64,000 nucleotides of DNA from a virus (Duplodnaviria; Caudoviricetes): IMG/VR virus record IMGVR_UViG_3300020577_007794; one strand, 5' to 3'. Shown piece by piece: positions 3,672-32,554 of this stretch (its first letter is position 1; each line of letters starts with the position of its first letter). A program made the translations under genes and the position numbers. Under the pieces are notes generated by a model that ran no database searches, was not told the DNA's origin, and saw only the letters and a list, made by a program, of their open reading frames with translations.

Positions 3672-3736
3672 CTAAGTTAGGACTGACAATTAAATACCTT
3701 TGATGGCAGTACAGGAGACTGCACTAGTTTAAGTCC

Positions 3737-5514: not shown

Positions 5515-5525
5515 GGTAAATTTCC

Positions 5526-6215
5526 ATGCACAGAAAAGGCAAAATTACAGAAAAAGAAATTACAGAACTAAAAAGAGCGTGGCCAGGTGTGCCTTTGTTT
5601 AAGTTCGCTCTCCCTCAAGCACCGAATGATGAGTTTGTGTGCAGCACAATTTCTACTAAAACAGCTGGAAAGATTGCTGTTCTACGCGATGATGCTGCTA
5701 GGCAAAATAAACCTATCCCAGTTGACGATATTAATAGAAAGCTGTACGATGAGTGTGTTTTTTGGCCAAGTTTGACTCTCGAAGAAATCGAAGGTCTGCC
5801 AGTAGGTGTTATTCCGAGTCTATGTAAGATAGTTCAGGAAAGATCTGGTTATATAAGCATTGACATTCATGGAAGAATCTTGGCACCAGACTTCTCTTCC
5901 ACTAACGTAGCACCTTTCCCAGGTTGGGGAGATATATCCAAGGAAGAACTAGAAGAAGTCAAGAAGATTTTTCCGTACTCTCTTTATAGAGTTAAGCTCG
6001 AGCACTTAGTCTTTCTTATCAGACCTATGACTAGAACAGACCTCAGGATATCTATGCAAGCAGTAGATGATCAGATATCTTTGATTAAATCAATCACTGT
6101 TTGGCCTAAGGAAGTTGACTGGGAAAACATGCCGTCTGGTTGGATTGAAACACTAGGAAAAGTAGCAACTGAGATTAGTGGTTGGGAAGCTAACGTTTCT
6201 GTAGAAGAAATCTAA
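5526..6215 (+). CDS. tail assembly chaperone with two tandem domains
   Basis: Lies between tube and tape measure; internal duplication (ITEKEITELKRAWP / ISKEELEEVKKIFP; FWP..LPVG..SGY / VWP..MPSG..SGW). Confidence 0.65.
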   Translation: MHRKGKITEKEITELKRAWPGVPLFKFALPQAPNDEFVCSTISTKTAGKIAVLRDDAARQNKPIPVDDINRKLYDECVFWPSLTLEEIEGLPVGVIPSLCKIVQERSGYISIDIHGRILAPDFSSTNVAPFPGWGDISKEELEEVKKIFPYSLYRVKLEHLVFLIRPMTRTDLRISMQAVDDQISLIKSITVWPKEVDWENMPSGWIETLGKVATEISGWEANVSVEEI

Positions 6216-6219
6216 GAGA

Positions 6220-6792
6220 ATGAATCTCGATAGAAGATATAGATGGTTTAAGGTAAATCTTCTTGGACCTAATCGGGAACGAAAAGATTACGTCTTTAGG
6301 GGGATGACTTCTGGAGAACTAACCATTGCTGGCTCTAAAGAGGGGGAGTTTGAAGCTGAGAGCTTTATTCTCTCCCAATGCGTTGTAAATTACAACGAAG
6401 ACATTGAATGGGCTGGAACTTCTAAGACTCTCTATGATCTGATAATGAACATATCAGGTCTAGATGAGGATTGTAGAACTCTAAGGGAAGCACAGAAATG
6501 GATGCATCACGAAGAGGGTAAATATGAAGCTGTAGCTATTTCTATGATACCCAGCTGTACCCCAGAGATAATGAGAAATTGTGACCCCAGTGATAGAGCA
6601 AAATATCTTCTTCTTGGCAAGTTTATGTTTACATCAATTTACGGGAAAGAAGTTGATGAATTGTTTGGGGAAGCTGCTACAGCTCCTAACAATCTAGAAG
6701 ATGCGTTCTTTACAAATCCTGAAGTGCCTACTCCAGGAAGAAATGAAAAAGTTACTTTTGTAGAAGGTGGCTTCAATTGGAAGAAGTCATAG
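6220..6792 (+). CDS. second tail assembly chaperone
   Basis: YVFRGMT...AG...L...I..ISG resembles the domains of 5526..6215; directly precedes the tape measure. Confidence 0.55.
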   Translation: MNLDRRYRWFKVNLLGPNRERKDYVFRGMTSGELTIAGSKEGEFEAESFILSQCVVNYNEDIEWAGTSKTLYDLIMNISGLDEDCRTLREAQKWMHHEEGKYEAVAISMIPSCTPEIMRNCDPSDRAKYLLLGKFMFTSIYGKEVDELFGEAATAPNNLEDAFFTNPEVPTPGRNEKVTFVEGGFNWKKS

Positions 6793-6801
6793 TAACGGAC
6801 A

Positions 6802-9800
6802 ATGTACCATAACGAGAAAGGTGAAGGGTTTACCGGTAAATTAGCAACCTTTGCTACTTTTGCAGGAATAACCGCAATAGCTCTAGGCTCCGCTCCTACA
6901 ATTGGGCGGAGCCTAGGACGTATTGGTGTATCACTAGCAAAGGATATTGCTGATAATCCTAGCATGTTTAAGTCAGTTCTAGGCCATGGTTCAGGCCTGA
7001 ACGAATCTAAACATGTTTTCTCAGATGTCTTCAACTTCATAGCAGATGAGCTTCCAAGATTAGATAACGTAATATACAGTGGTAATGCTCACACCACTAG
7101 AATGGAATCCATGCTTGACTCGTTAGCTTCTCATGTAGATGAAGCTAGTCAAGATATATTTAAATCAAAGAGGGGTGAAATTGGGGACGCTCTGCATAGT
7201 TTGGTCAAAGGTGTTGAAAAAGACAACATTGATAAACTTATGTCGGACACCCTTTTTAACAGATTTATAGAATCTTCTCAAGGGGTCCAATTCAAGTTCA
7301 TGGACCAAAAAGCTGCCACTGCTGGGGAGAAGATACTCAAGCAAAGACAGGAACTCACCCAAATCTTATCAGGTGCGTTGGAACGTGCAGAAACTGCGAG
7401 ATTCACAGCTAGTAGAACCTCAAAACAAATACTTAATACTGACAACAATCTGAATGTTGTCATGGATGCAGTCCACTCACATGTTGATCAATTAGAATCT
7501 ATAGGTTTAAGAAATCACCGGTGGATGGGTGATCAAGGGTTGACAAGACTCACAATTGGTGACATAACTATGGGTGGTGATGCTCATGATGCAGTAACTG
7601 AGTATCTCAAAAAGATTGGGGTGGATCATGAATACCACGGTAAAGCCCACCAATCACTTTTAGGGTTCATGGATGAACTAGATTTTAGTACCCTTGGTGC
7701 CAACGCAAAGTCAGATCTTATCTCTAAAATACACTCCCTAGATAGTGGGCTTGTTATGGATAAAGGGGGTAAGGTCTTTTCTATGGCCCACCCATTTAAC
7801 ATAGCAAAGGCCACTGCCTCTAGAACCTTACAAAATTTCCAAATACCACTAGTTCCAGGTGTCTTTAATATTCCAGGAACCCTTGGTAAATTCATGGCAC
7901 CAGATCTCGAAGGTATTAAATACCTTGGTAAAATGGGTATGCAGGGTGAGTTGAGAAGGGCTGGGGCGTTGTCTGGTCTCTCAGAAGATGCGTTTGGTGT
8001 AGCAATTGGTGACAGACTTATTGCCTTTGATGGTGATACAGCAAAGCATATAAATATAAAGGCCAACTTTATTAACACCTCTGCCTCAGAACATGCTAAA
8101 GAATTCGCTAGAAGTAGGGGTCAGGATGTTGAAGATCTTTTCGGTTCGTTTAAGGATTCTGTTGATGATGATGGAATTCTAAAAGCTGCATGGAATTACG
8201 TAAAGAAGAACGACGAACATTCTCACACCTTCCTTCAAAAAACATTGTTCGGTAGACAGAATGAGCTTTTTGACTTAGCATATACTGACAATGGGTTCAC
8301 ACTAGTTCCAAAAAATAATATTGGGGATGCAGGTGTGGCGGCAGCTCTTCATTCTGTCGGCAAGCTATCTGGGCTTGACTCTTCGGCCATAAACCCAATT
8401 TTGATGTCACGGTTCTTGGAGAACGGTGGGGTAGAAAATCTTCCTGGTTCAGCTTTACAAGATGCCTACAGACAGGTTTTCACACATGCATCAGCAGCAA
8501 ATGTTGACAGCAGTGCTTTTCTTAAACAAGCTGCTGATAAACTAAATTTCGATTCGTATGGTGAGTATGGCTCCCAGATTCAAGAACTGCTTAAAAACTC
8601 TAATGACCCAGCAGCTTTGCTTCATGCCATCACTACAGATAGCGGTAATGGCAGTCTTTTAGATAACTATAGCACCATCTCAAAGAACATCTCTCCAGAA
8701 TTATCAAGAGCTATAGCTGCAGTTGGGGAAAACAGTGATAGGCTTATGCAAATTGGTCCTAACCCTTCGGGACTGTTTGATAAGCTGAGAGATGGTGTAA
8801 TAGGTACAGACACACTTTCATCTCTCCACCTTCAGTTGCAGAAAGGTTTGGTTTCAGAAACTGTTCGACTTTCTGGTATTAATGAACTCACAACTCTATC
8901 AGGAAAGTCTCTCAATGAAACCTTAGACATACTGCACACCAACTCTGACCCTGCCTTAAGAAGAGCAGTCGCAGAAAAATTAGGATTAAAGTCATCATCT
9001 GATATTGGCTCTATAATTGACACCCTTAAAGAGGGGTTGGGAAGTGACACTTATGGAGATATTGGAAGACTTGTTTCTCCTATGGCGGATTTTGAGTCCC
9101 TGTTCGGAATGTCAAACGAACCTCTTGTTAAGGCTAAAATAGCTGAAGCAGCTAGAGTAGACTCTGTACTGGCAGCATATTACAGCAAGAATTACGAATC
9201 TCATAGTAAGATCATGGAAGGGTTGGCAAGGGGTGCCAATGTATCTGAGGCTGTGGCTAAGAGATTTGGTCTAGGTGGCGCAAACTTTACACCGGCAGAG
9301 TTTGATAATGTTCCTAAATTCTACGCTACAATCAAGACAGGTGATTTTGGGCCAGTGGAGCCTGGGTTTGGTTTCCTAAATCAACTAAAAGATTATGCCT
9401 CCAGTATAAATGCAGGTAGTTTTGCTCGTGGACTAGTTGACCCTAACGAGCCTATGTCTCACGCAGGGTTTGTGACTAATATTCTAATGCACATGCCTCA
9501 ATCTGTAGGTAATGCTGTAGGGCTTGGTCTTAGTTCACAAGAAGGTTTAACAGTAGGTAGATCTGTAGCAGGATTTGCTGTAAAAAGAGTTCTCCCTGCT
9601 TTTGTAGCATTAGAGATTTACAAAAACTACAATGCAGACATGCACAATATGGGTATGCCTGGTGTTGATGATATGGCTGGCAATGCGTATGCTAATGTAG
9701 GTTTAGCAAAAGCCAGAGTATTCGATGCTTTAGGTTTGACTGGTGCTTTAAAAGGATTAGTTGGAGCAGTGCCAGGTCTTGACCAATACGGCCACCCTAA

Positions 9801-12800
9801 ATCAGAAGAAGAGTTCAATGAAGAATTGTTTTACGGAGATGAGGCTGTACGTCGAGGAAGATTCTTTGTCATTGGCAGTAGAACCCCATTCACTGGTGGT
9901 GCAGTAGAGTATTTAAGACCCAACTTCTATAGAAGAATGAAGGCTCACTGGACAGAAGCTAGCAACGTCCAGCTTTCTAATCCCAAATACTCATTCCTTC
10001 CAACAATAACAAACCCACTTGCACCAATAAACAGGCTTCTCCATTCTGATTGGCAGGAGGAGTTAACTGAAGAAGATAGGCCTTATATGACAGGCAATCA
10101 ACTTCATGAGTTCCTTAACAACCAGCATCCTGGAGTTTATTTTGAGAATGCTCCGGTCGGTGGAGACGGTAATATTGGTTATATCAGTTACGGGGCTGGC
10201 CTACCAACCACTGTAAAGGCGTTTAGAGGCCTTTCTGGGGGCTTTAGCGGGGCGGGGGGTCCTGGAGGACCTGATTCTGGTTTTGGTGGCTCTACGGGCT
10301 TCTCAGGGGGCAGTGGGGGCGGCTCTGGTGGCAATACCCTAGGTAATGCTTATTATGAGCCTGGCACTGCTAAAATCAAGATTGGTAACAGAAAAGATAT
10401 ACCAGTAGATGCCCTTGAGAGAGATGGACTTCTATCTTATCTAGGAAGTATGGGTGAGGAGGCTACCAGACACATGGGGCTGTATGGTGGTATTCTAAGA
10501 AACTCCCCACTCAAATATGAACATGAAGGTATAGAAGTACAGGACCCAGAAGTAGCCTTTTCTAATAAAAGACTGTTCTTTAGTGGAGAATTTGGTGAAC
10601 TTACTGGCCCTGTTGGTGAATTTTACAGAAGGTTTATCTCAGAAGAGCATCAGTCTTTTGATGCGTTTAACCCTCTCCCAAACAGAATGCCAAGCTGGGT
10701 GCCTCAAAGATTCAGAACTGGTGACCCGTATATGCGAGTCTCTCATGGTGAATTCAATCTCCCAGGCGATGCCTATGAGCGACTCCACCCATACACTAGA
10801 CCTTTAAAAGCTAGAGGCTCTATGATTGGTCTTGAAAAGGATGAGATTGTAGCTAAAATGCTTGACCCAGTTGGTGCATACGAATCCGAGTCAGCAGAAG
10901 ACATAATGGGTTATGGTACGGCTACGCACAAACGTATCATGAGACAGCTTAGCAAGACTGGGATGATGGTGGGTGCTGAAGTTGCTGGATACGATCCAGT
11001 GCATAATATTTCAGCTACAATCGAAACTGTTATGAGAGGGCAGTCTGGTCTTGAAGTTGTAGAAATTAAAACCAGAGGTAATGAAACATTTAACACAGAC
11101 CCTGAAAAGTACGTTGATCAGTTGATGTTTTACATGTACCTTACCGGTGCAAAGCAAGGAAAAATTGCTCACGTTAATCGTGACAACCCCAACCAAGTCA
11201 GATTTGCAACATACAAATATGATGAAAATAGGATGCAAGCTGTTTTTGAAAGGGTGGAAGAGGCAAGGGGTGAGATCAGGGAAATGGTAGAAAAGGGGAT
11301 AGTTTCCCCCTACGAAACCTACGATCTTCTTTCTAGAATTGAAATCTTAGCTAAGACAGCCCCAGACTCTCCTGAATTTAGGGAGTATGTACACCATGCG
11401 CAGACTAAGGGTGGCTTTGGTGGTATGGAACAGGTTCGATTTGAACGTGCTATAAAATCGGCTCAACTTCTTAGAGAAGACTTTAACATCTATCCGTATA
11501 GAAACGTACCTACTGAAACTCGTGCTGCTAGAGTTAGGGGATTTACGGATGAAGGTGAAATTGTCACCAATATGGGTGTCATTAAGCTCGCCGGTGTGAA
11601 GTGGGATAAACAAGCTTTTACCATGCAAGACCCTGAAGATCTTATGTCTCAGTATGGAATTGTAGCAGGAAAAAGCATAAACATCACCCTTCCACAAGGA
11701 GGTTTTAATCCTGAGGTTATGGAAGATGTTACTACGTCTGCTTTGGTGGGTAATGTAAATAGCCGATTGATTCATTCCCAATATGCAGACCCAGACTATG
11801 CCGATAAATCAGCCATGGGTTCCCTTGCTAGGCAGGACAAATTAAACAGTCTTTTAGAGAAACTCCTTCACTCAGATAATGTTATCAGCAATAAATGGCT
11901 GAGGGTGAGGAGTGGTCTTGAGCAGTTTGAGCGAGGTGAAGTTTTCGGCACTGAGAACCAATCTTATAGAGATCTTTGGGGCAATTATATAGAACCAACA
12001 TTCAATATGGTCGTCTCCAAGAACCCTATTACTGCTGCTCTTCAAGGCGGTATTGTTACCTCTTTCTTCGTTAAAGGAAGGGCGGCGAAGGGTAAAGCTG
12101 CTTTGATTGGTGGTGCAGTAGCAGGATTGATATCTACAGGTAGGTTGGCCTATCAAGCTGTGACTGGAGAGACCCAAGTACCCCATAGATACAGGGCTCA
12201 GACAGAATTTGATGAGTACTACGACCTATTAAATTACATAAAACAGGCATCTCTGGGGGCGTCTGCGCAAAATCATGTCTATAAAAAGGATAAAACAATG
12301 AAAGATCAATTGGATTATTCAAATGTAAGTAGAACAAGAGAACAGGTGGATGCCTTCGGGGTGCTGGCTCTAGAGGCAGAAAGAAAAGCTAGACAAACTA
12401 TGTATGGCTTCGATGTAGTGAAAGGCACGTTGCAGGACGCACTAGCTGCTATACCACGACGACATAGACAGATAGCTGAGTCTGTAATTGTTGACGGGAC
12501 ACAGAGTGAAAAAGCTAAGTTCTATAACCTCCTTCCAAATTCGGAAAGAAGAGTATTAGGTAAGTTTCTCGGTAAACCACAAAGCTCTCTACCAAGTAAG
12601 CCTAGTCTCAATAACTACTTCAAGAATCACTTCCTTCCTGACGCTGACTGGTTGGGTTGGCACCGAAATGTTGACTTAGAAGACATAAAGACAAGAGCCG
12701 CAGCTTTAGAGAAGATGAAGATTGATCAACCATCAAGATCAAGAGTCAGTAAGGCTAGAGCTTATACCAGAGACATCCCAGTACCCAAAATGCACTCGAG

Positions 12801-12975
12801 TTCCCACAGCAGTATTAGTGGTCTACTACAGAGACTTTCTGCTTCAGGGAACATTGGAAGTACCAGGTTCACAACCTCATACCTTCCGACAACAGAAAGT
12901 GCGGTGACTGTGAACATGAAGTTCATAGACCAAAATACCCAAAAAACAGATGAACAAATAACATCACTGCTCTGA
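6802..12975 (+). CDS. tape measure-like giant protein with internal PD-(D/E)XK and SNase-like domains
   Basis: 2057 aa after the chaperones; hydrophobic segments near both ends; Gly-rich linker; GTATH...VVEIKT...QLMFY nuclease motifs. Confidence 0.7.
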   Translation: MYHNEKGEGFTGKLATFATFAGITAIALGSAPTIGRSLGRIGVSLAKDIADNPSMFKSVLGHGSGLNESKHVFSDVFNFIADELPRLDNVIYSGNAHTTRMESMLDSLASHVDEASQDIFKSKRGEIGDALHSLVKGVEKDNIDKLMSDTLFNRFIESSQGVQFKFMDQKAATAGEKILKQRQELTQILSGALERAETARFTASRTSKQILNTDNNLNVVMDAVHSHVDQLESIGLRNHRWMGDQGLTRLTIGDITMGGDAHDAVTEYLKKIGVDHEYHGKAHQSLLGFMDELDFSTLGANAKSDLISKIHSLDSGLVMDKGGKVFSMAHPFNIAKATASRTLQNFQIPLVPGVFNIPGTLGKFMAPDLEGIKYLGKMGMQGELRRAGALSGLSEDAFGVAIGDRLIAFDGDTAKHINIKANFINTSASEHAKEFARSRGQDVEDLFGSFKDSVDDDGILKAAWNYVKKNDEHSHTFLQKTLFGRQNELFDLAYTDNGFTLVPKNNIGDAGVAAALHSVGKLSGLDSSAINPILMSRFLENGGVENLPGSALQDAYRQVFTHASAANVDSSAFLKQAADKLNFDSYGEYGSQIQELLKNSNDPAALLHAITTDSGNGSLLDNYSTISKNISPELSRAIAAVGENSDRLMQIGPNPSGLFDKLRDGVIGTDTLSSLHLQLQKGLVSETVRLSGINELTTLSGKSLNETLDILHTNSDPALRRAVAEKLGLKSSSDIGSIIDTLKEGLGSDTYGDIGRLVSPMADFESLFGMSNEPLVKAKIAEAARVDSVLAAYYSKNYESHSKIMEGLARGANVSEAVAKRFGLGGANFTPAEFDNVPKFYATIKTGDFGPVEPGFGFLNQLKDYASSINAGSFARGLVDPNEPMSHAGFVTNILMHMPQSVGNAVGLGLSSQEGLTVGRSVAGFAVKRVLPAFVALEIYKNYNADMHNMGMPGVDDMAGNAYANVGLAKARVFDALGLTGALKGLVGAVPGLDQYGHPKSEEEFNEELFYGDEAVRRGRFFVIGSRTPFTGGAVEYLRPNFYRRMKAHWTEASNVQLSNPKYSFLPTITNPLAPINRLLHSDWQEELTEEDRPYMTGNQLHEFLNNQHPGVYFENAPVGGDGNIGYISYGAGLPTTVKAFRGLSGGFSGAGGPGGPDSGFGGSTGFSGGSGGGSGGNTLGNAYYEPGTAKIKIGNRKDIPVDALERDGLLSYLGSMGEEATRHMGLYGGILRNSPLKYEHEGIEVQDPEVAFSNKRLFFSGEFGELTGPVGEFYRRFISEEHQSFDAFNPLPNRMPSWVPQRFRTGDPYMRVSHGEFNLPGDAYERLHPYTRPLKARGSMIGLEKDEIVAKMLDPVGAYESESAEDIMGYGTATHKRIMRQLSKTGMMVGAEVAGYDPVHNISATIETVMRGQSGLEVVEIKTRGNETFNTDPEKYVDQLMFYMYLTGAKQGKIAHVNRDNPNQVRFATYKYDENRMQAVFERVEEARGEIREMVEKGIVSPYETYDLLSRIEILAKTAPDSPEFREYVHHAQTKGGFGGMEQVRFERAIKSAQLLREDFNIYPYRNVPTETRAARVRGFTDEGEIVTNMGVIKLAGVKWDKQAFTMQDPEDLMSQYGIVAGKSINITLPQGGFNPEVMEDVTTSALVGNVNSRLIHSQYADPDYADKSAMGSLARQDKLNSLLEKLLHSDNVISNKWLRVRSGLEQFERGEVFGTENQSYRDLWGNYIEPTFNMVVSKNPITAALQGGIVTSFFVKGRAAKGKAALIGGAVAGLISTGRLAYQAVTGETQVPHRYRAQTEFDEYYDLLNYIKQASLGASAQNHVYKKDKTMKDQLDYSNVSRTREQVDAFGVLALEAERKARQTMYGFDVVKGTLQDALAAIPRRHRQIAESVIVDGTQSEKAKFYNLLPNSERRVLGKFLGKPQSSLPSKPSLNNYFKNHFLPDADWLGWHRNVDLEDIKTRAAALEKMKIDQPSRSRVSKARAYTRDIPVPKMHSSSHSSISGLLQRLSASGNIGSTRFTTSYLPTTESAVTVNMKFIDQNTQKTDEQITSLL

Positions 12976-13049
12976 CGAGCAAACCATGCCTATGATATAT
13001 ATAGATACAACTAATTTTAATCAGCACAAAATTAAGTTAAGAAAAGCCT

Positions 13050-14192
13050 ATGTTAAATATTAAAACACCTAACCAATTTTTAGATCTAGCACTACAAAAC
13101 GGTATCCCCGATACCTTAGCTCATGATATTTATCAGAGAAAAGCTGCTAGCAAAACAGTAGATGACGTTCTAGCCAATGCAGTGCTTACAGGTTACTTCG
13201 ACAATATTGCTGAAGCAAGAAAGGCATATGCTTTAGTTTGGCGAGATTGGGTCCTACTAACAAAGTCTTCTGCTATTATGGAGGCTGGAAGTATCAAGAC
13301 ATCTTCTAGTTCCCAATCTTATATGGTTGCTGTCGAACCTGACAAGGAAAGTATTCTTGAAAGAGCTTACTCTGCATTAGAATCAATGATCGGCCCTTGT
13401 GGAACCACAGCTAAATCAAAGACAACTGCCAACAATAAGATTATTCTGGCATCAGACTTTCATTTACCATTTCTGCACAAGCCAACCCTTAATGCAATAA
13501 TGGCCTCGGATTCTGACCACTTAATCATAGCTGGTGACTTTATGGATATGTACTCTGCTTCGTCTCACAGACCAAGTATTGACTATCTAACAGCTACGGA
13601 AGAGATAGCTATTGCCAGAGCTACTCTTGAAATGTTGGCTAAGAAATTTAAGACTATCAAAATGATTTCAGGTAACCACGAGAATAGAGTTGTGAAAAAG
13701 ATTCAAAATCTTGCTCCACAACTTCAGCCTCTAGTTATCCACCCATTAAAGTTGATTAGCTACGGATTGGATAATGTTTCAGTTGAAAATCTAACAATCC
13801 CTAATACAGCACCTATGTCAGCTTTTGCAACAGACATTGACCTAGACTTCGCAATGGTTGAAAGCAATATGTTGGTGGGTCACTTTGAGGAGTTCTGTGG
13901 TGATGATGCCCCAGTTAAGTTGGAAGAGTGGTTGAATAAATTCTCTCACAAGCTTCCGTTTAAGGTATCTGACATCAAAGCAGTTTTTCAAGCGCATACA
14001 CATAGGCTAAATATGCGATACACCGCAACTGGTAGATTGCTGATTTCTACAGGTTGTGCTTGCGGAGTTCAGGAGTATGTGTGGAGACAGCATAGCAAGT
14101 ATTCTCCACCTACTCCAGGCTTCGTGGAACTTTTTTACGATGAAAAGGGAAATATTGACTTCCCCCAGACAAAACTAGTATATACAGGCTAA
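13050..14192 (+). CDS. calcineurin-like metallophosphoesterase
   Basis: SDFH, AGDFMD, GNHE, GH and AHTH motifs in canonical order. Confidence 0.85.
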   Translation: MLNIKTPNQFLDLALQNGIPDTLAHDIYQRKAASKTVDDVLANAVLTGYFDNIAEARKAYALVWRDWVLLTKSSAIMEAGSIKTSSSSQSYMVAVEPDKESILERAYSALESMIGPCGTTAKSKTTANNKIILASDFHLPFLHKPTLNAIMASDSDHLIIAGDFMDMYSASSHRPSIDYLTATEEIAIARATLEMLAKKFKTIKMISGNHENRVVKKIQNLAPQLQPLVIHPLKLISYGLDNVSVENLTIPNTAPMSAFATDIDLDFAMVESNMLVGHFEEFCGDDAPVKLEEWLNKFSHKLPFKVSDIKAVFQAHTHRLNMRYTATGRLLISTGCACGVQEYVWRQHSKYSPPTPGFVELFYDEKGNIDFPQTKLVYTG

Positions 14193-14503
14193 TGGAATCT
14201 ATAAGACAAGCACAGAAAGTGATTACCCCTGGAGAGAAATCTTCAGGGTATAATCGAAAATTCAACAACAGGTATGGTAGGTTGGATCAAAAGATCCCAG
14301 AATCAATAACAGAGAAAGCTATTTTGGACTCAATCGAACAAGATTTTAAGGACGGAAAGATCACAGAGAATGTGTATCTAAGAAAAAAGATTCTAGCCCA
14401 GGGAAAGGTTGCCAGCCTTTTATGGATTGCAACCACCAACAATATGGGGAAGAGCCCATATCCTAAACTATCTGGGAGACCAGTAAGGAATAGATCGCGC
14501 TAA
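14192..14503 (+). CDS. small basic hypothetical protein
   Basis: 103 aa, TAATG-coupled to the phosphoesterase, followed by a terminator. Confidence 0.7.
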   Translation: MESIRQAQKVITPGEKSSGYNRKFNNRYGRLDQKIPESITEKAILDSIEQDFKDGKITENVYLRKKILAQGKVASLLWIATTNNMGKSPYPKLSGRPVRNRSR

Positions 14504-14533
14504 GTTTGCTCCTGTGTTATTGTTGTTCATGGT

Positions 14534-14559
14534 AAGGCCACCTTCGGGTGGCCTTTTTT
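14534..14559 (+). terminator. rho-independent terminator with C(UUCG)G loop
   Basis: AAGGCCACC-TTCG-GGTGGCCTT followed by a T run. Confidence 0.92.
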
Positions 14560-14564
14560 CGTAG

Positions 14565-14573
14565 CTCTATTTG
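14565..14573 (+). promoter_or_regulatory. CTCTATTTG motif copy 2
   Basis: Immediately after the terminator and 10 nt before GTG 14584. Confidence 0.65.
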
Positions 14574-14583
14574 ATAGAAAATA

Positions 14584-17500
14584 GTGGCTAGACTGGATAG
14601 AATAACCAATCTGCCTACCGAACCAGGCGATACGGTTCGAGATAAGAAAACTAAGACCGATTACATAGTCCAGTCTATAGTCCCCTATGTTGTGGGTGGA
14701 GCTAGCTTATACTACCTACTTAACGCCTATACCGGCAAATTAGAACAAGTTATAGCTAATGATTTAAAAGACAGAGACTTTCAACCAACAAGAAAGAATG
14801 TGGAGAGAATGACCCCAGAACAGGTCAGAGAATCTAGATTAGATACGTTGGTACGTGGAATGAAAGGCAACGAAGATCTTCTTCGGAAACTAGAAACACC
14901 AGAAGGCTCAGTATTTCGGGACCTGCTTCTTCTCATAGATGATATGGATGATAGTCAGGTTAAAGAGAAGTTTAGAAAATTTGGAGAAACCTTAGTTAGT
15001 GTAACTGACAGGGTGTATAACTCTACCGAGATTCTCGAGTTGATGCAGCAATCACTTGGGGACTCGGCTTCTTTTTATGGACATGAGTACCTTTCAGATT
15101 TAGCAGAAGAACTCAGTGAATACACTTCTGCAAGAACAGGCACTAATAAACTTTCTACTTACGCTGTTCCAAGATTCAACGCAACCAGAGATATTGCCGG
15201 ATTTGAAAAAGTCAACGGTAAACAGGGTTTTGTAGATAGGGCACTTCAGTACTCACTCAGTAAAAGTGAGAGATCCCTTTCTTCAAGAAAAGAGTTTGTA
15301 AATACAGTAAGACAGACTGTTTTTAATAGAGAAGGTTTCTCTTCCCCAGCTATCAGAAGATCAGCTGGAATGAACGAACTGTTTGATAATATTACCGACC
15401 CATATTCCAGAGTTGCTAAAATGGTAGCTGCGTCTCTTGGGGGGAAAGCTACTGAAGAGACCAGAATTGTAAGGAACATCACCAATAAAATTCTGAATGG
15501 GGACGAAGCTTTAACTGCTGCCCTTATTGACTCAGATATAAACGGTATCTTCTCTAATCTCTATCGTCAAACAACATTTAGAACTAGAGCTGGATTAGCT
15601 AATAAACTCTCAGCTAGAAGAACATCTAGCGCGGCCAGGAGAGCTAGACCTACAAAAAGATTAAATGTATCAAGTCTTTTGAAGGGTATGGACAGAGTTG
15701 GGGATACTGAGAAGTACATATCTATAAGCAAGAGTTCATTAATAAATGATGTTATAGGCTCAAAAAGTGTATCTGTAAATTCTTCTAAAGGTATTGTTGG
15801 GACCCTTAGACAAGACGCAGTTCGCAAGAAAATGGAATCTCTTCCAGAGGTTATTACAATGCCAGCCTCTGTGTTAAGAAAACAGGTGGATTCTAACATT
15901 GTCTCCATTGAAGAGATAGAACTGGCACATAACCAAACACCACAACAAATAAGCAGAGAACTTCGTGGAAAGATGGGTGGAAGAGGTGCTGCGGTTGGAT
16001 ATGCTGGGGCGTTTAACCACAATGCGAAGGCTGCATTTTTCGAGGTCAATGATAAAAAATTTGACACACTAGAAAAGGCTAGAACCAACCTCCTTCCAGA
16101 TCAGAGCATCTATAGTATAAAGGCTTTCAACAAAATGGGGAATGAAATACCTCTTTTCCCCCAGGTAATAAAAGTTGAAACTGATATGGACTTGGTAAAT
16201 GAAAGCTACCACCAAGCCAAAGATGAATCAAGGCTGGCTTATTATACTATACAAAATTCTTCTGGAGAGAAAAGTGTTAATCTAATTGGTTCGTCAATGA
16301 ATGTTTCTATTGATGACCAGATTGACAGAGCCTTCGCAGCTGCTAATACCAGAGGTAGAAGTTCCCTATCTTTGGATATTGAAAACAACCCAGAAACAGG
16401 TGCTATCACAGAGATAGGCGTAAGCTTTAGAGATACCGAAGGTGGTTACAAACCTCACTTCAATTTTGTGGCTGGGAATGGAGAATCTGAATCTAATGCT
16501 ATTCTAAGACTTGTAGGTAGATTGGAAAATGCTGATTATGTCGGCACTATGACAGCCCATGACTTCAGTACACTAGCTTCTAGAGCCATGGCCTTATCCA
16601 AAACCTCACAGAGCCCAACAATGCAGAAGAACTTGGAGGCGGCATACTATAAGCTTCTAGAAATTGAGCAAAAAGCTGGGTATGACTTTACTGTAGGTTT
16701 GACAGCTGCTGGGCAGTTTGGGGATACCCCCTTGACACTTGGTAACATAAGCCAGGATTACCTTTCCCCCAAAATCCTAGGCAGGGCTGAAACTCATACT
16801 GCTATGCAAGATAGTATGGACGCTCTTGAAATCCAAGATAAAATACGGGTTGGAGAGCTTCAAGCAAGCAAAGCAGAACTCGGAACAATCTTCCAAGTAA
16901 GATCAACCAGAGTTAATAGAGACGGTTCTTTTGGGAGATTGACAGGCTTCGAAAGACGTGGTGAAGGAAGTTCAGCCTTATTTGAAGAAATGGTTTTCAA
17001 TGAAGGCCGATTTACCACAACTGGTTCTTTATTTGAGCTTCAAGCTGACGGTACTTCACAGCTTGGTGCTGCTATGCGTGGCCTCATTCCAGTAGGTCAT
17101 GGGGAAGCTGTTGCCCCCAATGTTGATATAAATGAAATGGTTCAATTCACTTCCAGGAGAATGGAAGAAAGAGGTTCCAGAATTATTAGAGGCATCAACC
17201 CGCTTAACACGTCCTATTACGATGCTACAACTAGATTTGGAATTGAAGGTGGAAATCTTTTTGGTCTACACGAACTTTCAGTGGTTCAACAAACCAGAAG
17301 TCTTTTAGGCAGCGAGAAGGCTCAGGAAATTCTTAAAAATGTTGGAAGTATGCAGTTTGATCAGATAGAAGAAGCTGCTAGAGACTTGGCATCAACTGTT
17401 CAACTTGGAGATGACGCATCCAAACCTGGATACCAGGCAAGACTTGTAGAGAGTGTGACAAATGCTTTTACGGATGCACAGTACCGACAATCCTTGACTA

Positions 17501-19089
17501 AATCTTCCCTAACTGATCTTCTTGACTCAGCTGCTGGTAAGTCTTTAGTTGGGATGGCAGAAAAAGGAATAGATGGAAACTTTATTGAACAGTACGCTGC
17601 TCCTGCGTTGAGCCTTTCCTTTATGGGAGAAGTTGCCGGTATTCAGGCACCAACATCGTTTGTTTCCGACCCGAGACTGCGACTTCAAACCTTTGACAGA
17701 TCGGGACCTTTCCAAGGTGCAGTGACAAACGTTCTTGGCTACAATACTACTGAAAGAGAGGTAGAAAACTCTGTCAAGAGTTTGATAGGTCAAACTATGC
17801 TAGCTACCACTTCCAGCAAAGCCCCTGGAGCGGGTGCCTTTATAGAGAATGCAATCGGCCCAGAGGGACTGAACAAAGTAATTGAAAGTGTTTCCTTACT
17901 GAGACAATCAAAAGAGATCAAGGATGACATCCATGCACTCGATGCCCTCTCTACCACACTTTATAGTGACCCCTCTATAAAAAGGTTAGCTGATGCTATA
18001 GATGAATCGGATTTCTTCCACGGAAACATTAAAGAACAGCTTCTTCGTAGAAATGATCTTCTAAGAGAACACAAAGATGCACTAGGTGTTCATGATGTAG
18101 ATATTATTACTGAACGATTTAAAAACATAGTAGAAGAGGAGTTTGCTAAAACTAGTTCTGCATCTTCTGCAACTGCCGCATCTATAAAGAGAGCACAAAA
18201 TCAACTAGGTGATGCCGCACACACTCTATTCTCTGACGTAACACCTGACTCCTTAGATTTTAATGCCATCTCTAAATTAGGTTCAGAGAAGGTTGATGAA
18301 TTAACAAATGATGCACTGAGAAGAATACATGAAATGACCACTCAAGGTACAGGTGGTTCGGATGTATTGCAACATATTTTTGATAAAACAGGTGAACTGA
18401 GAAATGTATACTTTAAGTCTGGTTTATCGCCAAGAGATCAAGCCATAGCCTTAAATGCATTTGTTAAAGAATCTGAAGAAGTCGTTAAATTGGGTTCTCA
18501 GACAACTAACCCTATTGAACTGGTTCATTCAGTGTTCTTGAAGTACCAGAATGCTGCTCAAACAGCAAAAGCTTCCGCCCCAACGTTGACTGAAATGCAA
18601 AGCACTATAGTCAACCAAGCTACCTCACTTGCAGCTAATGCTTCTGAGGATATATCGTTGAAGGAAGTACAACATACTGTTCTTCTTGGCAACAAGATTG
18701 CCAGTGAAATGGAACTCAAAAAAGTTACGGTACCTCTACTAGCTGTAGGAGGTTTGTTAGCTCTTATTGCAGGAAGCAGCAGACCTAAAGAGGAGTATAG
18801 TGGTGGATACGCCAGCAAACAGTCTCCAGGGGTCATAGCGGCCCATTCAGAGATACCCGGCACTGGATCTGGTACCAGAGTCTTTATGGGTCAGGAAGCC
18901 CCCTTCCAAACAACAGTGAATATGACATCCTATGTTCAGTCTGAAAGAGAGAAACAAGCTATACAAACCAAAGTGTACGATATGATTACTGGAACAGCTA
19001 GACCAGTTCAAGTACGAGTAGACAATAAAGACTTTAGAAAGAATGATCACAGAGAAACAGCTATGGAGCAACTAAGACAGGCATTGTAA
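14584..19089 (+). CDS. giant virion/ejection-like protein with embedded DEDDh exonuclease domain
   Basis: 1501 aa, mostly helical-looking; LSLDIE, VGTMTAHDF and HTAMQD motifs; C-terminal hydrophobic helix VPLLAVGGLLALIAG. Confidence 0.6.
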   Translation: MARLDRITNLPTEPGDTVRDKKTKTDYIVQSIVPYVVGGASLYYLLNAYTGKLEQVIANDLKDRDFQPTRKNVERMTPEQVRESRLDTLVRGMKGNEDLLRKLETPEGSVFRDLLLLIDDMDDSQVKEKFRKFGETLVSVTDRVYNSTEILELMQQSLGDSASFYGHEYLSDLAEELSEYTSARTGTNKLSTYAVPRFNATRDIAGFEKVNGKQGFVDRALQYSLSKSERSLSSRKEFVNTVRQTVFNREGFSSPAIRRSAGMNELFDNITDPYSRVAKMVAASLGGKATEETRIVRNITNKILNGDEALTAALIDSDINGIFSNLYRQTTFRTRAGLANKLSARRTSSAARRARPTKRLNVSSLLKGMDRVGDTEKYISISKSSLINDVIGSKSVSVNSSKGIVGTLRQDAVRKKMESLPEVITMPASVLRKQVDSNIVSIEEIELAHNQTPQQISRELRGKMGGRGAAVGYAGAFNHNAKAAFFEVNDKKFDTLEKARTNLLPDQSIYSIKAFNKMGNEIPLFPQVIKVETDMDLVNESYHQAKDESRLAYYTIQNSSGEKSVNLIGSSMNVSIDDQIDRAFAAANTRGRSSLSLDIENNPETGAITEIGVSFRDTEGGYKPHFNFVAGNGESESNAILRLVGRLENADYVGTMTAHDFSTLASRAMALSKTSQSPTMQKNLEAAYYKLLEIEQKAGYDFTVGLTAAGQFGDTPLTLGNISQDYLSPKILGRAETHTAMQDSMDALEIQDKIRVGELQASKAELGTIFQVRSTRVNRDGSFGRLTGFERRGEGSSALFEEMVFNEGRFTTTGSLFELQADGTSQLGAAMRGLIPVGHGEAVAPNVDINEMVQFTSRRMEERGSRIIRGINPLNTSYYDATTRFGIEGGNLFGLHELSVVQQTRSLLGSEKAQEILKNVGSMQFDQIEEAARDLASTVQLGDDASKPGYQARLVESVTNAFTDAQYRQSLTKSSLTDLLDSAAGKSLVGMAEKGIDGNFIEQYAAPALSLSFMGEVAGIQAPTSFVSDPRLRLQTFDRSGPFQGAVTNVLGYNTTEREVENSVKSLIGQTMLATTSSKAPGAGAFIENAIGPEGLNKVIESVSLLRQSKEIKDDIHALDALSTTLYSDPSIKRLADAIDESDFFHGNIKEQLLRRNDLLREHKDALGVHDVDIITERFKNIVEEEFAKTSSASSATAASIKRAQNQLGDAAHTLFSDVTPDSLDFNAISKLGSEKVDELTNDALRRIHEMTTQGTGGSDVLQHIFDKTGELRNVYFKSGLSPRDQAIALNAFVKESEEVVKLGSQTTNPIELVHSVFLKYQNAAQTAKASAPTLTEMQSTIVNQATSLAANASEDISLKEVQHTVLLGNKIASEMELKKVTVPLLAVGGLLALIAGSSRPKEEYSGGYASKQSPGVIAAHSEIPGTGSGTRVFMGQEAPFQTTVNMTSYVQSEREKQAIQTKVYDMITGTARPVQVRVDNKDFRKNDHRETAMEQLRQAL

Positions 19090-19799
19090 TGGAAGATATT
19101 ACTGATCAATTAGCAGATGCGGGAAATGCGTTAAACCCGCTTTCTGAGGATAAAGCAGAACAAAGATCTCACCTATTTACGGCCAGTATGGTGTCTGCCG
19201 CCGCCAGTATAGGAACAGGTTTTCTAACTAAAGATAAGTTGAAGTCAAGAATGATCAGGAATTCAACATTTTTCACCGCAACATTCGCTGCGGGAATGTA
19301 CTCCGATATTGACCATGGTGACAGTCCTAGTACAGCTATCCTTGTTAACTCTCTAACTGCTGTAGCGGGTATTGTTGCGTTTACTGCGGCAAAAAAATTA
19401 GTACCTTCTGGATTTAGAGCTCTTGCTGGCGCAATTGAAGAACACACAGGAAATAGATCACTCAGCCTGTTATCTGAAAGATTCGCTCAAGCAGTTAAAA
19501 ATGTACCACAGATCGAGTATTTTTTAAACAAGGACACAATTGGACTAGCTGGTTCTTCTGTAACTATTCCAGTAGCTCACTCCTTGGTGCATAGAATAGT
19601 TGCAGACGGACATAGAAGAAGAATCAATTCTGCGCCTATGGCCCACCAATCTTTTAAAGTGGAAAACCAAGCCGGTGATTCAGGTGATCAGACAGAGATG
19701 TCTGGTGAAAGACCTGTAGGAACAAATGAAATAAAGAAAGCGACATTTAACACTGTGATGGTACGGTCCAGTGTTTCGAATTTAACAAGAATGGTTTAA
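19089..19799 (+). CDS. predicted membrane-segment protein
   Basis: Several hydrophobic stretches (LFTASMVSAAASIGTGFL; AILVNSLTAVAGIVAFTAA). Confidence 0.6.
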   Translation: MEDITDQLADAGNALNPLSEDKAEQRSHLFTASMVSAAASIGTGFLTKDKLKSRMIRNSTFFTATFAAGMYSDIDHGDSPSTAILVNSLTAVAGIVAFTAAKKLVPSGFRALAGAIEEHTGNRSLSLLSERFAQAVKNVPQIEYFLNKDTIGLAGSSVTIPVAHSLVHRIVADGHRRRINSAPMAHQSFKVENQAGDSGDQTEMSGERPVGTNEIKKATFNTVMVRSSVSNLTRMV

Positions 19800-19800
19800 C

Positions 19801-22800
19801 ATGCTGTCAGCCTCACTCTCAAATCTTATCAAATCAACAACCAACACTGTTAAGGGTCAGTTGGTTAATATAGGTAGATCAGGTACTAAAGTTGTCTTTG
19901 AAATAAAGACTGCTGATAGTAAGATTTATAAGGTATCAGCAACAAGCAGTCAAGCTGCCATAATTGTTAAGACACTTAATCTGTCTCAAAATATCGTGGC
20001 CGCAGCTTTGGGGCCTGGAATAAGTGATGAACTAAGAAGCAACCTTATCTCTGATAAAATTTTTGTTGAGATTCCAGTAGAGAAGTCAATATCAGGCTCT
20101 GAAGCTTCTGTGTTGTCTGGTGGAGAAAGAAAGTCTAGTAGAATAGAAAATCCCACTACAACCAAAGGAAAGGCTGAAGATGAGAAGAAAGAAAAGGAAG
20201 ACTTAACTACAGTCTATCCTACAGATAATTGGCCTGGATTGATGGAAGAATCGAGGTTTTTACCTGTTAAAGTTCCAGGCATACTGGGAACCTCCAACAC
20301 AAGAATAGGTCATGCTGTATTCTCAGCACCAATTCAGTTCTTTACATCTCAAAGAACCAGCTATATAGAGCAGAGCCCCACTCTTAGAGAATCTGGGTCC
20401 ATTAAGAAAGGTACGGGATTAGCCTTTCAAACGTATACCATTAACTATTTTGCTACAGATGCTGAGGAAGTAAGAACCTCTGTAAAGGAGGTTTTTGATC
20501 AACTATTGTTACTGCCGTTTATATCGTGCCAAGGTGGTCCATTTGGGTTTACCCCAGGGGATGGGGACATCCCGTACCACGATTTTGCAGTGAGATCTTA
20601 CTCACTTGCTACTGTGCCTGGGCACCCATCAGTCTTGAATGTGCAGATTTCTCTAGAACCACTGCTATTCGATATTTACTGCCAGGTCAAAGACTGCAAA
20701 GAGAGCCAGTCTGGTTATCAAGTAACCATGGATGACATTGTTTGCTGGCCTCTGGTTAAACTTTGGACAGGTTCTAACGAAAAGTCAACCTATAACCCAA
20801 TTCTAACAACGCTCAACGGCTCACTTAGAATGTCTCTCCCATCTAAAAAGGTTATTAACAGAATTGTAGATGAGGCTGATAAGTTTAAATCAACCTTATT
20901 AAACACAGAGGTTGATACACTAGAGACATTAAAAATTCTCATAACAGAACCTAGAGGTGCTGCTATTTCTTCTAACAATGCTAAATTGGTAGAGTCGGAA
21001 GTACTGGCTGGTTCTGGCAGAAAGATCGCTGTAGTTAAATTTGAAGACCAATTTAACTATTCTAGTCTCCAGCAAAACAGTCAATTTTTAGGACTAGTTA
21101 GATGGGAAAAGTTTTCAGGAAACCGATTCTCCAGTAACGGAACATTCCTTCCACAAAGTGGTACCGTTAATCTTGACAGATCAAGCAGCTTTGTAACAAA
21201 TCAAGTTGGGATAACTAACTATAAAACACGAGGGTCTAACGAGTTTAGTTGGATTGACGTTGTGGCCAGTAAGGGAGACATTTCAACCCTAATTGATCAG
21301 TTCTTGAAAGATGAACAAAAACAAAGAGCTGAACCAACTAGTCAGTTAGGGACGCTGCCCTCAATCAACCCACTAACTGATGACATGATTACCCATATCA
21401 AGAACAACCCATGGGAATACTTTGCACTAGTTCTCGATGTTAAGGTAGAAAATGAATCATCGCTATTAAGATCAATTAATCAGCTTTTGAATCAAGCTAA
21501 AACAAAAGCCACTATTCCGTCTATGTCAGAGAGAAAGAACTTTGATAGGATTTTAGCGGAAGAAGATTTAGTAGATTCTGAAGTCTTTATGGATACAGGG
21601 ATAGGGAATACTGACCTAATAATTGAATCCATAATGTCCACTAGGACTAATAATCTTTCTACACAACATGTTCAGGGATGTCATATACCTAAGCATCAAT
21701 TCTTAGGCGGTGGTACTGCAGAGTTTTCTATAAAAGGAAAATGTCTGTCAAAGACTGCCAAAGAAAGATTAGAGGCACTAAAACTGGAATTTGATAGGAG
21801 ATGTCATCTAACTTTTTCTGGCCCCTCCGCAGGTTCTATAAAGAATAATCCAGATAGCACACCATTTGTACGAGTGGTAAATGAAGTATTCCAACTCATG
21901 GGTGTTGACTTTGTTATGCCTGTATCATTGCGGGTTGACTCTATCCCAGAACAACCTAATGTGTGGGAATTCGAAATGGCACTCCTTGAGTTCAATCCTA
22001 AGACTCAGGCATCTGAAAGAGTTAAATTCTTAGAAACAACTCTTCAAACACAGGCAGCAGTTCTAAATTACCAAGCCCCAGGAGATCTAACCCCAGACCC
22101 TCTCATACAAAAGGCTCAGGAATATTTCTCTTTAGAAGATTCTTTGAAGAGTCTTGAGATACTGCCTGACATGGGTCTCCCTACTAAAACTATTCTTGAT
22201 AAGTGGATAGATATTATTAGAGAAGAGGCTATTTACAGGAAGATCAATAAAGTACCTAGACCTAAATCAACACTCTCAGCCACTGAAGCTGAGGTAGTTG
22301 ACCACCTAGAACACTTCTTCCAAAATAATGACTGCCTTACTATAATGTCCCACTTTAAGGAGAGGGATACTACTAAAAGAACTTCTTACACTGGATCATT
22401 TGTAGACCCGGATTTCTACTTCTTCTATGACCCTAATAAAACTTGGGGAGCATTGCTCGATAAGTTGGCTATGCAGGAATTTGGAAGAAGGCTTCCTGGT
22501 TTCTCCTCCGATAAGGTAGAGGAAAATGGTTTAGAAGCGTTCTATCAAGAATTCTCTCCACTCTTCGGCACCACAACCATGTTCTCTTCAGACTACCTTT
22601 CATCTAGGGCGTCTACCACTGAAGATGAATTGATAAGTGCTGCTAAGAACTCATACCCACCATCTCTAGCAAAACAAGCACATGATGCCACAATGTCTCA
22701 GGTTGAGGGTGCTAAATTTGAACAGTATCCGGGAGCATGGTGGACAACACCAACCAATGTCTCACCTGTTGATGAAACAAAGACATTTGAAGACAGCAAC

Positions 22801-30878: not shown

Positions 30879-30910
30879 AAAGATTCCAAGCCACCAATAA
30901 TATAATTGAG

Positions 30911-32523: not shown

Positions 32524-32525
32524 CG

Positions 32526-32534
32526 CTCTATTTG
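32526..32534 (+). promoter_or_regulatory. CTCTATTTG motif copy 3
   Basis: Intergenic, 20 nt before the baseplate J ATG. Confidence 0.65.
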
Positions 32535-32554
32535 CGTACAGAGAATTAGTATAA

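Follow-up and report, generated by a model that had tools for sequence, protein, structure and literature searches.

The window, the whole stretch of DNA analysed here, comprises 64,000 nucleotides of a virus of the Caudoviricetes (IMG/VR record IMGVR_UViG_3300020577_007794), and its source contig is one sequence of 194,459 bp. It reads as a single long run of phage structural genes on the + strand, a tail module, and no nucleotide match to it was found among GenBank phages. Our subject is two giant genes in this module, A and D, which occupy the position of a tape measure and whose products apparently carry exonuclease domains. The open reading frames (ORFs) of A, D and the small gene E that follows D are as the original prediction, made from the sequence alone, had described them (6802-12975, 2057 amino acids (aa); 14584-19089, 1501 aa; 19089-19799, 236 aa; all +). 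The features of A and D are given below; hydrophobicity values throughout are Kyte-Doolittle (KD) scores over a 19-residue window.

6802..12975, + strand: gene A, 2057 aa, homolog of gp145 of Bacillus phage 0305phi8-36 (BLASTP E 6e-62)
6802..6897, + strand: conserved N-terminal peptide and uncharged hydrophobic segment of A, aa 1-32 (conservation, KD)
9499..10821, + strand: core blocks of A, aa ~900-1100 and ~1226-1340, with a Gly-rich linker between them (conservation)
10798..11301, + strand: predicted PD-(D/E)XK domain of A, RecB/Cas4/lambda-exonuclease type, aa 1333-1500 (profile, model, motifs)
11506..11841, + strand: predicted SNase-like OB-fold domain of A, aa ~1569-1680 (VIA, Pfam in a homolog)
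12034..12171, + strand: Gly/Ala-rich, moderately hydrophobic segment of A, aa ~1745-1790 (KD 1.30 at 1766-1784)
14584..19089, + strand: gene D, 1501 aa, GTG start, in the slot of gp146 of 0305phi8-36 (synteny)
14584..14721, + strand: conserved N-terminal peptide of D (PGD..R....DY) and uncharged hydrophobic segment, aa 28-46 (alignment, KD)
16345..16878, + strand: predicted DEDDh (DnaQ-like) 3'-5' exonuclease domain of D, aa 588-765 (model, motifs)
16861..17103, + strand: beta-rich domain of D that follows the exonuclease, aa ~760-840 (strands within model residues 231-310, at a predicted local distance difference test score (pLDDT) of about 90)
18715..19086, + strand: C-terminal module of D, a hydrophobic helix (aa 1381-1399) and a domain of ~100 aa (PLLA.GG..., SEIPG) (alignment)

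The segment of A spanning aa 1220-1720 was modelled with AlphaFold using 28 homologs. Mean pLDDT was 72.6, with values of 80-95 in the nuclease part and low values over aa 1220-1330. The best fold match of aa 1333-1500 in VIA was Cas4 SSO0001 (4ic1; Z 14.9, root-mean-square deviation (rmsd) 3.1, 149 residues aligned), followed by the phage exonuclease 3k93 (Z 14.0), MGME1 (5zyu, Z 13.5) and lambda exonuclease (3slp, Z 12.4). LHK-Exo, Dna2 and RecE structures were matched as well, Foldseek gave E 9e-6 to lambda exonuclease, and these matches show the alpha-beta-beta-beta-alpha-beta core of this fold. Profile searches agree, with PHROG 1706 (Cas4-like, E 4e-13) and PHROG 434 (RecE-like, E 4.5e-9) matching at aa 1354-1504 and Pfam PDDEXK_1 falling just below threshold. 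The motif residues G1372, H1376, E1393, D/E1408, D/E1421-x-K1423 and Q1440-x3-Y1444 are retained in 35-37 of 38 homologs; by position, the counts are 36/36 for an acidic residue at 1408, 35/36 for D/E at 1421 and 36/36 for K1423, with Q1440 in 35 and Y1444 in 36. In the model these residues map to helix 1, strands 1-3 and helix 2, as expected for the family. The four-cysteine Fe-S cluster of Cas4 is found neither in A nor in the mature part of any homolog (zero Cys), hence A is not a strict Cas4 and has more in common with lambda Exo, RecE and MGME1. Collectively, the model and the alignment suggest that A carries a Cas4/lambda-exonuclease-type PD-(D/E)XK nuclease that is apparently active.

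SNase catalysis relies on conserved Arg/Glu/Arg and Ca-binding Asp residues. The beta-rich stretch of A at aa ~1569-1680 gave matches to Tudor-SN (Z 7.8 and 7.7) and staphylococcal nuclease 1sta (Z 7.0), all of them in the grey zone for Z, and its structural matches were exclusively SN-like folds, including the extended Tudor. The distant homolog P0038 passes Pfam SNase at the aligned place (21.8 bits, cut-off 21), and the family profile of the domain had no match among PDB sequences. Across 28 homologs there is no invariant or near-invariant Arg or Glu, as judged without residue-level superposition, and we therefore read the domain as a binding module that is probably non-catalytic. Of the SNase-like part that had been predicted in A, the fold is tentatively supported, at these grey-zone scores, and an active nuclease is not supported.

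A word-indexed search found 49 relatives of A, encoded on contigs whose length reaches 250 kb and mostly ~2,050-2,170 aa long. Residues 900-2057 are well kept and the N-terminal 880 aa are variable except for the beginning, where the first ~25 alignment columns are conserved and the next 850 are not. The segment at aa 14-32 contains no charged residues (KD 1.46), and aa 1-32 form a candidate loading or anchoring signal. The most distant relatives, of 1.3-1.65 thousand amino acids (kaa), align only at 964-1095 and 1228-1336, and the first core block (aa 890-1110) has no Pfam or PDB sequence match. One distant member of the family, P0043 (1415 aa), has at aa 577-670 a restriction-endonuclease-fold domain (REase_MTES_1575/DUF559, E 1e-18), placed between the two core blocks and thus at the position of the Gly-rich linker in the A of the window. 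Given that the distant relatives share only the core blocks and that one of them bears another nuclease, the scaffold of A looks older than its nuclease domain.

Several homologs of A (P0005, P0006, P0008, P0027, P0028, P0033, P0035 and P0039) contain canonical inteins (Cys1 ... HN/GN, +1 Ser/Thr), inserted at the equivalents of aa 1026, 1073 and 1305 in the core blocks and of aa 1372. At 1372 the intein splits nuclease motif I between its G and the following xxxH. The copy of A in the window is free of inteins.

An exhaustive profile search for D gave 60 representatives, nearly all of 1.5-1.8 kaa and all from metagenomes, which are conserved at aa ~540-930 and over the C-terminal ~190 residues. 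Pfam and PHROG had no match to D, either whole or in tiles. The model of the tile spanning aa 530-930 has a pLDDT of 89.2, and within it aa 588-765 matched Pol III epsilon (1j53; VIA Z 12.6, rmsd 2.7, 140 aligned), 3'hExo (Z 12.1), ExoI (Z 11.5) and ISG20 (Z 11.3), besides a TREX1 homolog and polymerase proofreading domains. Of the best 50 chains, 46 carry the annotation of a DEDD-type exonuclease domain, which leaves four RNase H-like relatives, namely ESRP1, Exuperantia, Maelstrom and an M. tuberculosis protein without a name. Foldseek placed RNase T, ExoI and REXO2 at the top at E 3e-3, the top BFVD matches were viral exonucleases, and the Foldseek searches of PDB, BFVD and Atlas were concordant at weaker scores.

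The family alignment of D shows the motifs LDIE(T), GT..x.DF and H-x4-D. Twenty-eight of 32 representatives possess the complete set of five DEDDh residues, D598/E600 (ExoI), D660 (ExoII) and H738-x4-D743 (ExoIII). In the model, strand 1 carries D598/E600, D660 opens the helix that comes after strand 4, and the last helix holds H738/D743. Three related representatives (P0055, P0057 and P0058) have jointly lost four of the five, as expected if these residues form one functional site. Single members of the family gave weak matches to RNase_T (E 2e-4), DNA_pol_A_exo1 (E 0.017) and DNA_pol_B_exo1 (E 0.035). Against PDB sequences, phmmer and the family profile of the exonuclease returned only noise, and hhalign of the family profile with E. 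coli DnaQ gave no match. As the curated models are blank for D, the assignment of a DEDDh 3'-5' exonuclease, apparently active, rests on the fold, the motifs and their conservation. The nuclease-family domains that had been proposed for both giants are thus upheld, in that the tiles adopt nuclease folds and the catalytic residues are conserved.

Elsewhere in D, the beta-rich domain that follows the exonuclease has an unmatched fold and was barely covered by the fold searches. No part of the family is more widely conserved than the C-terminal module, which occurs also on proteins of 164-1020 aa. Both modelled tiles, one from D and one from A, are globular, and the nearest language-model neighbours labelled as tape measures scored 0.77-0.79, below the level that is meaningful.

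An RNA-polymerase core in D was considered and rejected, the motif DxDxD being conserved in none of 31 family members and absent from the 1501-aa protein itself. Similarly, an extra giant of 1979 aa on the related contig L006 is without DxDxD and does not match the RNA polymerase of this genome. The latter is a 1273-aa ORF with a DMDAD motif, read as a two-barrel RNA polymerase, at 4048-7867 of the contig (numbered in the orientation of the window) on the opposite strand, ~20 kb before the window. A C-terminal hydrophobic element common to D and this polymerase was also rejected: the Gly-rich hydrophobic tails look alike by eye and not by hidden Markov model (HMM), as neither the C-terminal HMM of D nor a 37-column helix-motif HMM matched the polymerase among 686 ORFs.

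The conservation within the two families bears on where the domains might act. One rival explanation, which we consider unlikely, is that the nucleases work in the producer cell or in the particle, or are structural only, by holding or trimming DNA ends, in maturation or as DNA-binding plugs. It would agree with the apparently dead SNase-like domain of A, with the D subclade of P0055, P0057 and P0058, which keeps the domain sans catalytic residues and so suggests a non-catalytic use, and with the fact that the most conserved parts of A are its non-nuclease blocks (aa 900-1100 and 1226-1340). Virion-associated assembly nucleases exist, such as the T4 gp4-type head completion nuclease (PMC7824862). 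Against this, about 90% of the members of either family retain the catalytic residues across a deep divergence, and the avoidance of Cys and the N-terminal peptides, both described below, point to export. The intein within nuclease motif I of several homologs also argues for catalysis, inteins usually occupying functionally critical sites.

The genes around A and D are as follows.

1071-2852, + strand: tail sheath (PHROG/Pfam)
2874-4675, + strand: tube and tube paralog (PHROG/Pfam)
5526..6792, + strand: two small genes, 229 and 190 aa, in the chaperone position (that of gp143/gp144 of 0305phi8-36), placed by context only
13050..14192, + strand: gene B, 380 aa, calcineurin-like metallophosphoesterase (Pfam, PHROG, motifs)
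14192..14503, + strand: gene C, 103 aa, basic (position)
14534..14561, + strand: intrinsic-terminator-like hairpin (9-bp stem, 6 G-C pairs, TTCG loop, T run)
19089..19799, + strand: gene E, 236 aa, hydrophobic in two to three segments (29-47, 83-101 and 153-171) and free of Cys
19801..27771, + strand: gene F, 2656 aa, gp27-type baseplate hub (gp147 homolog), which marks the end of the tail-core block
27758-28438, + strand: SLT transglycosylase (Pfam/PHROG)
28428-29156, + strand: VanY/M15 peptidase (Pfam/PHROG)
30468-33667, + strand: baseplate wedge genes (Pfam/PHROG)

Across this block the window is collinear at the protein level with 0305phi8-36, a jumbo myovirus of Bacillus thuringiensis, whose compared locus is L001:18420-31870. 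The sheath pairs with gp139, the tube with gp140, the tube paralog with gp141, a 281-aa protein with gp142, the 2057-aa protein (A) with gp145, the 2656-aa protein (gene F) with gp147 and a 136-aa protein with gp150. The order is sheath, tube, tube paralog, gp142-like gene, the two chaperone-position genes, A, B, C, D, E and hub, so that the slot of gp146 is occupied by four genes, B, C, D and E. In 0305phi8-36, gp143 and gp144 are proposed tail chaperones, gp146 is the hypothetical or assigned tape measure and gp147 is assigned as a hyperplastic gp27-type hub (PMC2147016); gene F matches gp147 in BLASTP at E 5e-21 and PHROG 20474 at E 4e-85. The chaperone-position pair has no direct similarity to gp143/144 and is placed by its location after the tube paralogs and the gp142 homolog; its homologs precede gene A in the related contigs L002, L003 and L006. 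The tape-measure position proposed for the giants is therefore borne out, with A directly after the chaperone-position genes and D in the gp146 slot before the hub.

The alignment of A with gp145 runs over aa ~900-2057 at 25% identity, and within it gp145 retains the D, DxK and QxxxY of the nuclease and has a segment similar to aa ~1745-1790 of A. The two proteins also agree in their place after the chaperone genes, in length class, in a SNase-like stretch and in having no Cys. They differ in the N-terminal 900 aa, which are unrelated, and records label gp145 only as structural or hypothetical. The records of 0305phi8-36 list gp145 and gp146 as virion proteins detected by mass spectrometry, and the presence in virions that was predicted for the giants has some support on the side of A, through its homolog. 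Further isolate relatives of A besides gp145 (ORF145) are found in Bacillus phages vB_BceM_WH1, Edson and KLEB27-3 and in Moorella phage MTATph1. D resembles gp146 in its slot between the gp145 homolog and the gp27-type hub and in being giant, Cys-free and rapidly diverging; gp146 is unlike D in its length of 2537 aa and in having no similarity to D detectable by BLASTP, the exonuclease HMM or the C-terminal HMM. As a side observation, gp146 contains near aa 1222 an ExoI-like 'YLDIETTGL' (L001:27794-28693, aa ~1180-1480). ExoII and ExoIII motifs were not found there and the exonuclease HMM of the D family had no match, so an exonuclease in gp146 is not confirmed.

This setting makes it very improbable that A and D are non-virion replication or recombination enzymes that are merely encoded in a tail block. 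Families like lambda Exo/RecE, DnaQ and the Mre11-like phosphoesterases are indeed typical of recombination and repair, and a RuvC-like resolvase lies among the baseplate genes (35097-35606). However, gp145 was found in virions, the gene order from the chaperones to the hub is strictly conserved, and each protein contains 1,300-1,900 non-enzymatic residues, with hydrophobic N- and C-terminal elements in both. Furthermore, the lack of Cys is common to A, D and gp146 and is not seen in the ordinary enzymes of the genome.

The architecture is conserved in related phages, with the cassette recurring in variant forms on five divergent metagenomic contigs at 26-57% identity. L002 keeps the order of chaperone-position genes, A, B, C, D, E and hub, with A, D and the hub at 52-62% identity, and L003 keeps A-B-C-D-E-hub with the same three proteins at 29-39%. 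L006 has A, C, D, the extra 1979-aa giant and the hub, L007 has B, C and D, and L005 has a distant A, a 1591-aa giant and the hub. These data suggest a widespread lineage of contractile-tailed phages of 190-250 kb whose tape-measure slot houses two exonucleases, both conserved and apparently active. The 'Moraphages' (PMC12619734) were considered as the identity of this lineage and rejected as unrelated, being T4-like and without RNA polymerase.

Gene B scores 23.3 bits with Pfam Metallophos (cut-off 21.5) and E 6e-13 with PHROG 221, and all five metal-binding motifs (SDFH, AGDFMD, GNHE, VGH and AHTH) can be read after an N-terminal extension of ~120 aa. Homologs of B occur in L002, L003 and L007 and are missing in L006, and B is thus dispensable. 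Genes of 97, 101, 107 and 112 aa stand in the place of C directly before D in L002, L003, L006 and L007, and only the L002 copy is alike by BLAST; from its position, C is possibly an assembly factor specific to D. The hairpin lies in the 80-nt gap between C and D and is the best terminator-like site within 6000-20500. It is a candidate for dividing the cassette into the transcription units A-B-C and D-E-hub, or for attenuating the second. D, E and the hub gene are translationally coupled, E to both of its neighbours. Homologs of E were found in L002 and L003, and aa 98-201 of E match the C-terminus of the 1979-aa giant of L006 (E 3e-5); no longer fused forms of E were found, which is weak evidence.

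Membrane-like helices had been predicted in these proteins, together with a conduit through the envelope built from them. The hydrophobicity analysis found only two transmembrane-like segments, D 1381-1399 (1.92) and E 83-101 (1.93). In addition, uncharged or Gly-rich segments occur in A (KD 1.3-1.46, at 14-32, 921-939 and 1766-1784) and once in D (28-46). What remains of the predicted helices is only one or two hydrophobic stretches of modest strength in each protein, too few and too weak to support the trans-envelope conduit.

The proteins encoded by A, C, D and E contain no Cys, and D also contains no Trp. By comparison, mean Cys content is 1.09% over the ORFs of the genome of at least 150 aa and 0.3-0.8% in the window's other structural proteins. 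Zero Cys was found in all 24 intein-free homologs of A (24/24) and in 28 of 30 D representatives, in gp145 (1930 aa) and gp146 (2537 aa), and in the extra giants of L005 and L006. In intein-bearing homologs of A every Cys lies inside the intein. Cys is present in the hubs (10-17), in the chaperone-position genes (1-5) and in B (4-6, with 4 in the window). The shared absence of Cys groups A and D with the tape measure as one class and fits passage through a narrow channel or an oxidising compartment. For the Afp extracellular contractile injection system (eCIS), tube cargo requires an N-terminal signal, and Cys-rich cargo did not load (10.1101/2023.11.13.566157). The conserved cassette and the strict avoidance of Cys that A and D share with gp146 fit proteins that leave through the tail.

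Based on these data, our tentative first choice is a model where A and D are ejected exonucleases that act on DNA ends at the entry site, and first of all on those of the phage itself. A and D would belong to the interior of the tail core in a jumbo myovirus like 0305phi8-36, where they would be produced along with the tape measure and loaded between tube and hub. In both, a conserved N-terminal peptide stands ahead of a variable region, as would suit a loading signal. Contraction of the sheath would expel them through the tube, ahead of or with the leading DNA end; we infer both the location in the tail lumen and the ejection. In the cell, A would provide a 5'-3' nuclease of the lambda-Exo/RecE/Cas4 type beside an SNase-like OB module that probably binds nucleic acid, and D a DEDDh 3'-5' exonuclease. 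Such enzymes require DNA ends, which an intact host chromosome does not offer, hence the ends of linear DNA at the entry site are favoured as the substrate, although any assignment of a substrate is speculative. Resection and flap trimming would then allow repeats to anneal into a circle or concatemer before host RecBCD/AddAB acts. In known phages, 5'-3' PD-(D/E)XK exonucleases drive single-strand-annealing recombination (lambda Exo/Red-beta, RecE/RecT). A long terminal repeat of 0305phi8-36 is mentioned in PMC2147016.

Several points weigh against this model. The virion record is that of gp145 and gp146 of 0305phi8-36 and covers neither D nor the A of this phage. The avoidance of Cys would also fit proteins that are merely exposed outside the cell, and D has no relative in sequenced isolates, as judged by searching GenBank phages with D and two other family members. 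Motif II of A is Glu in the clade of the window (9/36), Asp being commoner, and the polarity of both enzymes is assigned by analogy, from family membership only. Folded 20-kDa domains would poorly fit a tube of ~4 nm if the proteins are trimeric, and injected exonucleases could damage the phage's own DNA. No annealing protein was identified in the cassette. The 194-kb assembly shows no terminal repeat, so that the end structure of the phage is not read from it, a result that is uninformative given that assemblies collapse repeats.

The same delivery would also serve a different purpose, in which A and D are offensive or anti-defence effectors that degrade host, plasmid, prophage or superinfecting-phage DNA, or defence nucleic acids such as msDNA and guide or signal oligonucleotides, the phage genome being protected otherwise. 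We regard this second-ranked explanation as doubtful. It can draw on the conserved active sites of A and D and on the metallophosphoesterase B, whose intact motifs could open or process substrates; B however has 4-6 Cys and is missing in L006, and probably does not travel with A and D. The different restriction-fold domain of P0043 suggests that the nuclease is exchangeable cargo on a scaffold. Injected multidomain 'polyvalent' proteins with nucleic-acid enzymes are known (PMC5512222, PMC7824862), and Hardies et al. described an SNase domain on a related hub, that of the prophage BtI1 (PMC2147016). On the other hand, the active domains of both proteins belong to exonuclease families, for which the intact chromosome offers no free ends, the sole endonuclease-like fold (SNase-like) is without a conserved catalytic Arg or Glu, and none of the results indicates a target. 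Overall we rank action on the phage's own ends first, then attack on host or competitors, then a role in assembly or structure, and non-virion enzymes last.

A broader version that joins several of these elements appears less probable than either kind of delivery or a structural role. It holds that the tail lumen is served by a general cargo system and that two exonucleases form a recombination machine at the channel exit. The rules of the cargo system would be an N-terminal loading peptide, zero Cys and a C-terminal hydrophobic anchor module, and its exchangeable enzymes would include a 5'-3' exonuclease, a 3'-5' exonuclease and other restriction-fold nucleases. By their opposite polarities the two exonucleases would trim the entering terminal repeats, and the genome would close before phage gene expression.

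Tape measures and ejection proteins are usually seen as rulers, as formers of channels and as tools that degrade the wall. Enzymatic tape measures of the classical kind bear peptidoglycan hydrolases (T5 Pb2, TM4 Tmp), whereas here the wall enzymes are separate small genes after the hub. The SLT and VanY/M15 genes overlap and lie just 3' of the hub gene; in 0305phi8-36 they are domains of the hub gp147 itself. The folds and catalytic motifs of the A and D domains are those of lambda exonuclease, RecE, Cas4 and MGME1 and of DnaQ, RNase T, ExoI and TREX, but the domains of A and D are embedded in tail proteins of 1.5-2 kaa and fall below Pfam thresholds. To our knowledge the RNA polymerase of Thermus phage P23-45 is the only enzyme of nucleic-acid metabolism that has been shown to ride on a tape measure or ejection protein. 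Its gp96, a tape measure fused to the virion RNA polymerase, is thought to be extruded through the tail (10.1101/2022.12.01.518664). Like A and D, gp96 places a nucleic-acid enzyme within a giant tail-lumen protein that is presumed to be ejected into the host; it differs in carrying an RNA polymerase in place of an exonuclease, belongs to a siphovirus and is not homologous to them, and the present genome encodes its RNA polymerase separately, in the 1273-aa gene. With enzymes fused to tape measures already known, calling the cassette an undescribed system was an overstatement.

Polyvalent proteins such as P1 DarB (PMC5512222) are similarly large, multidomain and delivered with DNA, and contain nucleic-acid enzymes. 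In contrast to A and D, they are delivered from the head or by conjugation, have other domain sets and typically include processing peptidases; by Pfam or PHROG, no peptidase or other effector domain was found in A, with its two nucleic-acid domains, or in D, with its one. That paper does not mention tape measure, DEDD, RecB or Cas4 domains. Cargo of the Serratia Afp system (Afp18) is borne in the tube and offers a parallel in its N-terminal signal and Cys intolerance (10.1101/2023.11.13.566157), but eCIS cargo consists of toxins against eukaryotic cells and is loaded by an ATPase. Among the searchable papers we found none on exonucleases in proteins of the tape-measure slot or on a nuclease in gp145. 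What is new is the zero-Cys rule, which extends to every giant encoded between chaperones and hub, with gp145 and gp146 among them.

The lineage probably brings nucleases into the cell together with its DNA. If injected, they would be the first known case of DNA-end processing brought in with a phage genome, which bears on how linear genomes survive RecBCD/AddAB and become closed. As A is homologous to a virion protein of the culturable Bacillus phage 0305phi8-36, the idea can be tested at the bench now. Furthermore, the zero-Cys rule and the N-terminal peptides could help in designing cargo for phage tails and for injection devices that resemble them.

Besides the wedge genes, the baseplate block encodes a glycosyltransferase (30911-32221) and the RuvC-like protein mentioned above, a Holliday junction resolvase. 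It is followed by a GroEL-like protein of 866 aa (35623-38223), in which residues ~90-375 match terminase, DnaC and primase PHROGs and not GroEL. This aberrant stretch fits an inserted intein or homing-endonuclease element.

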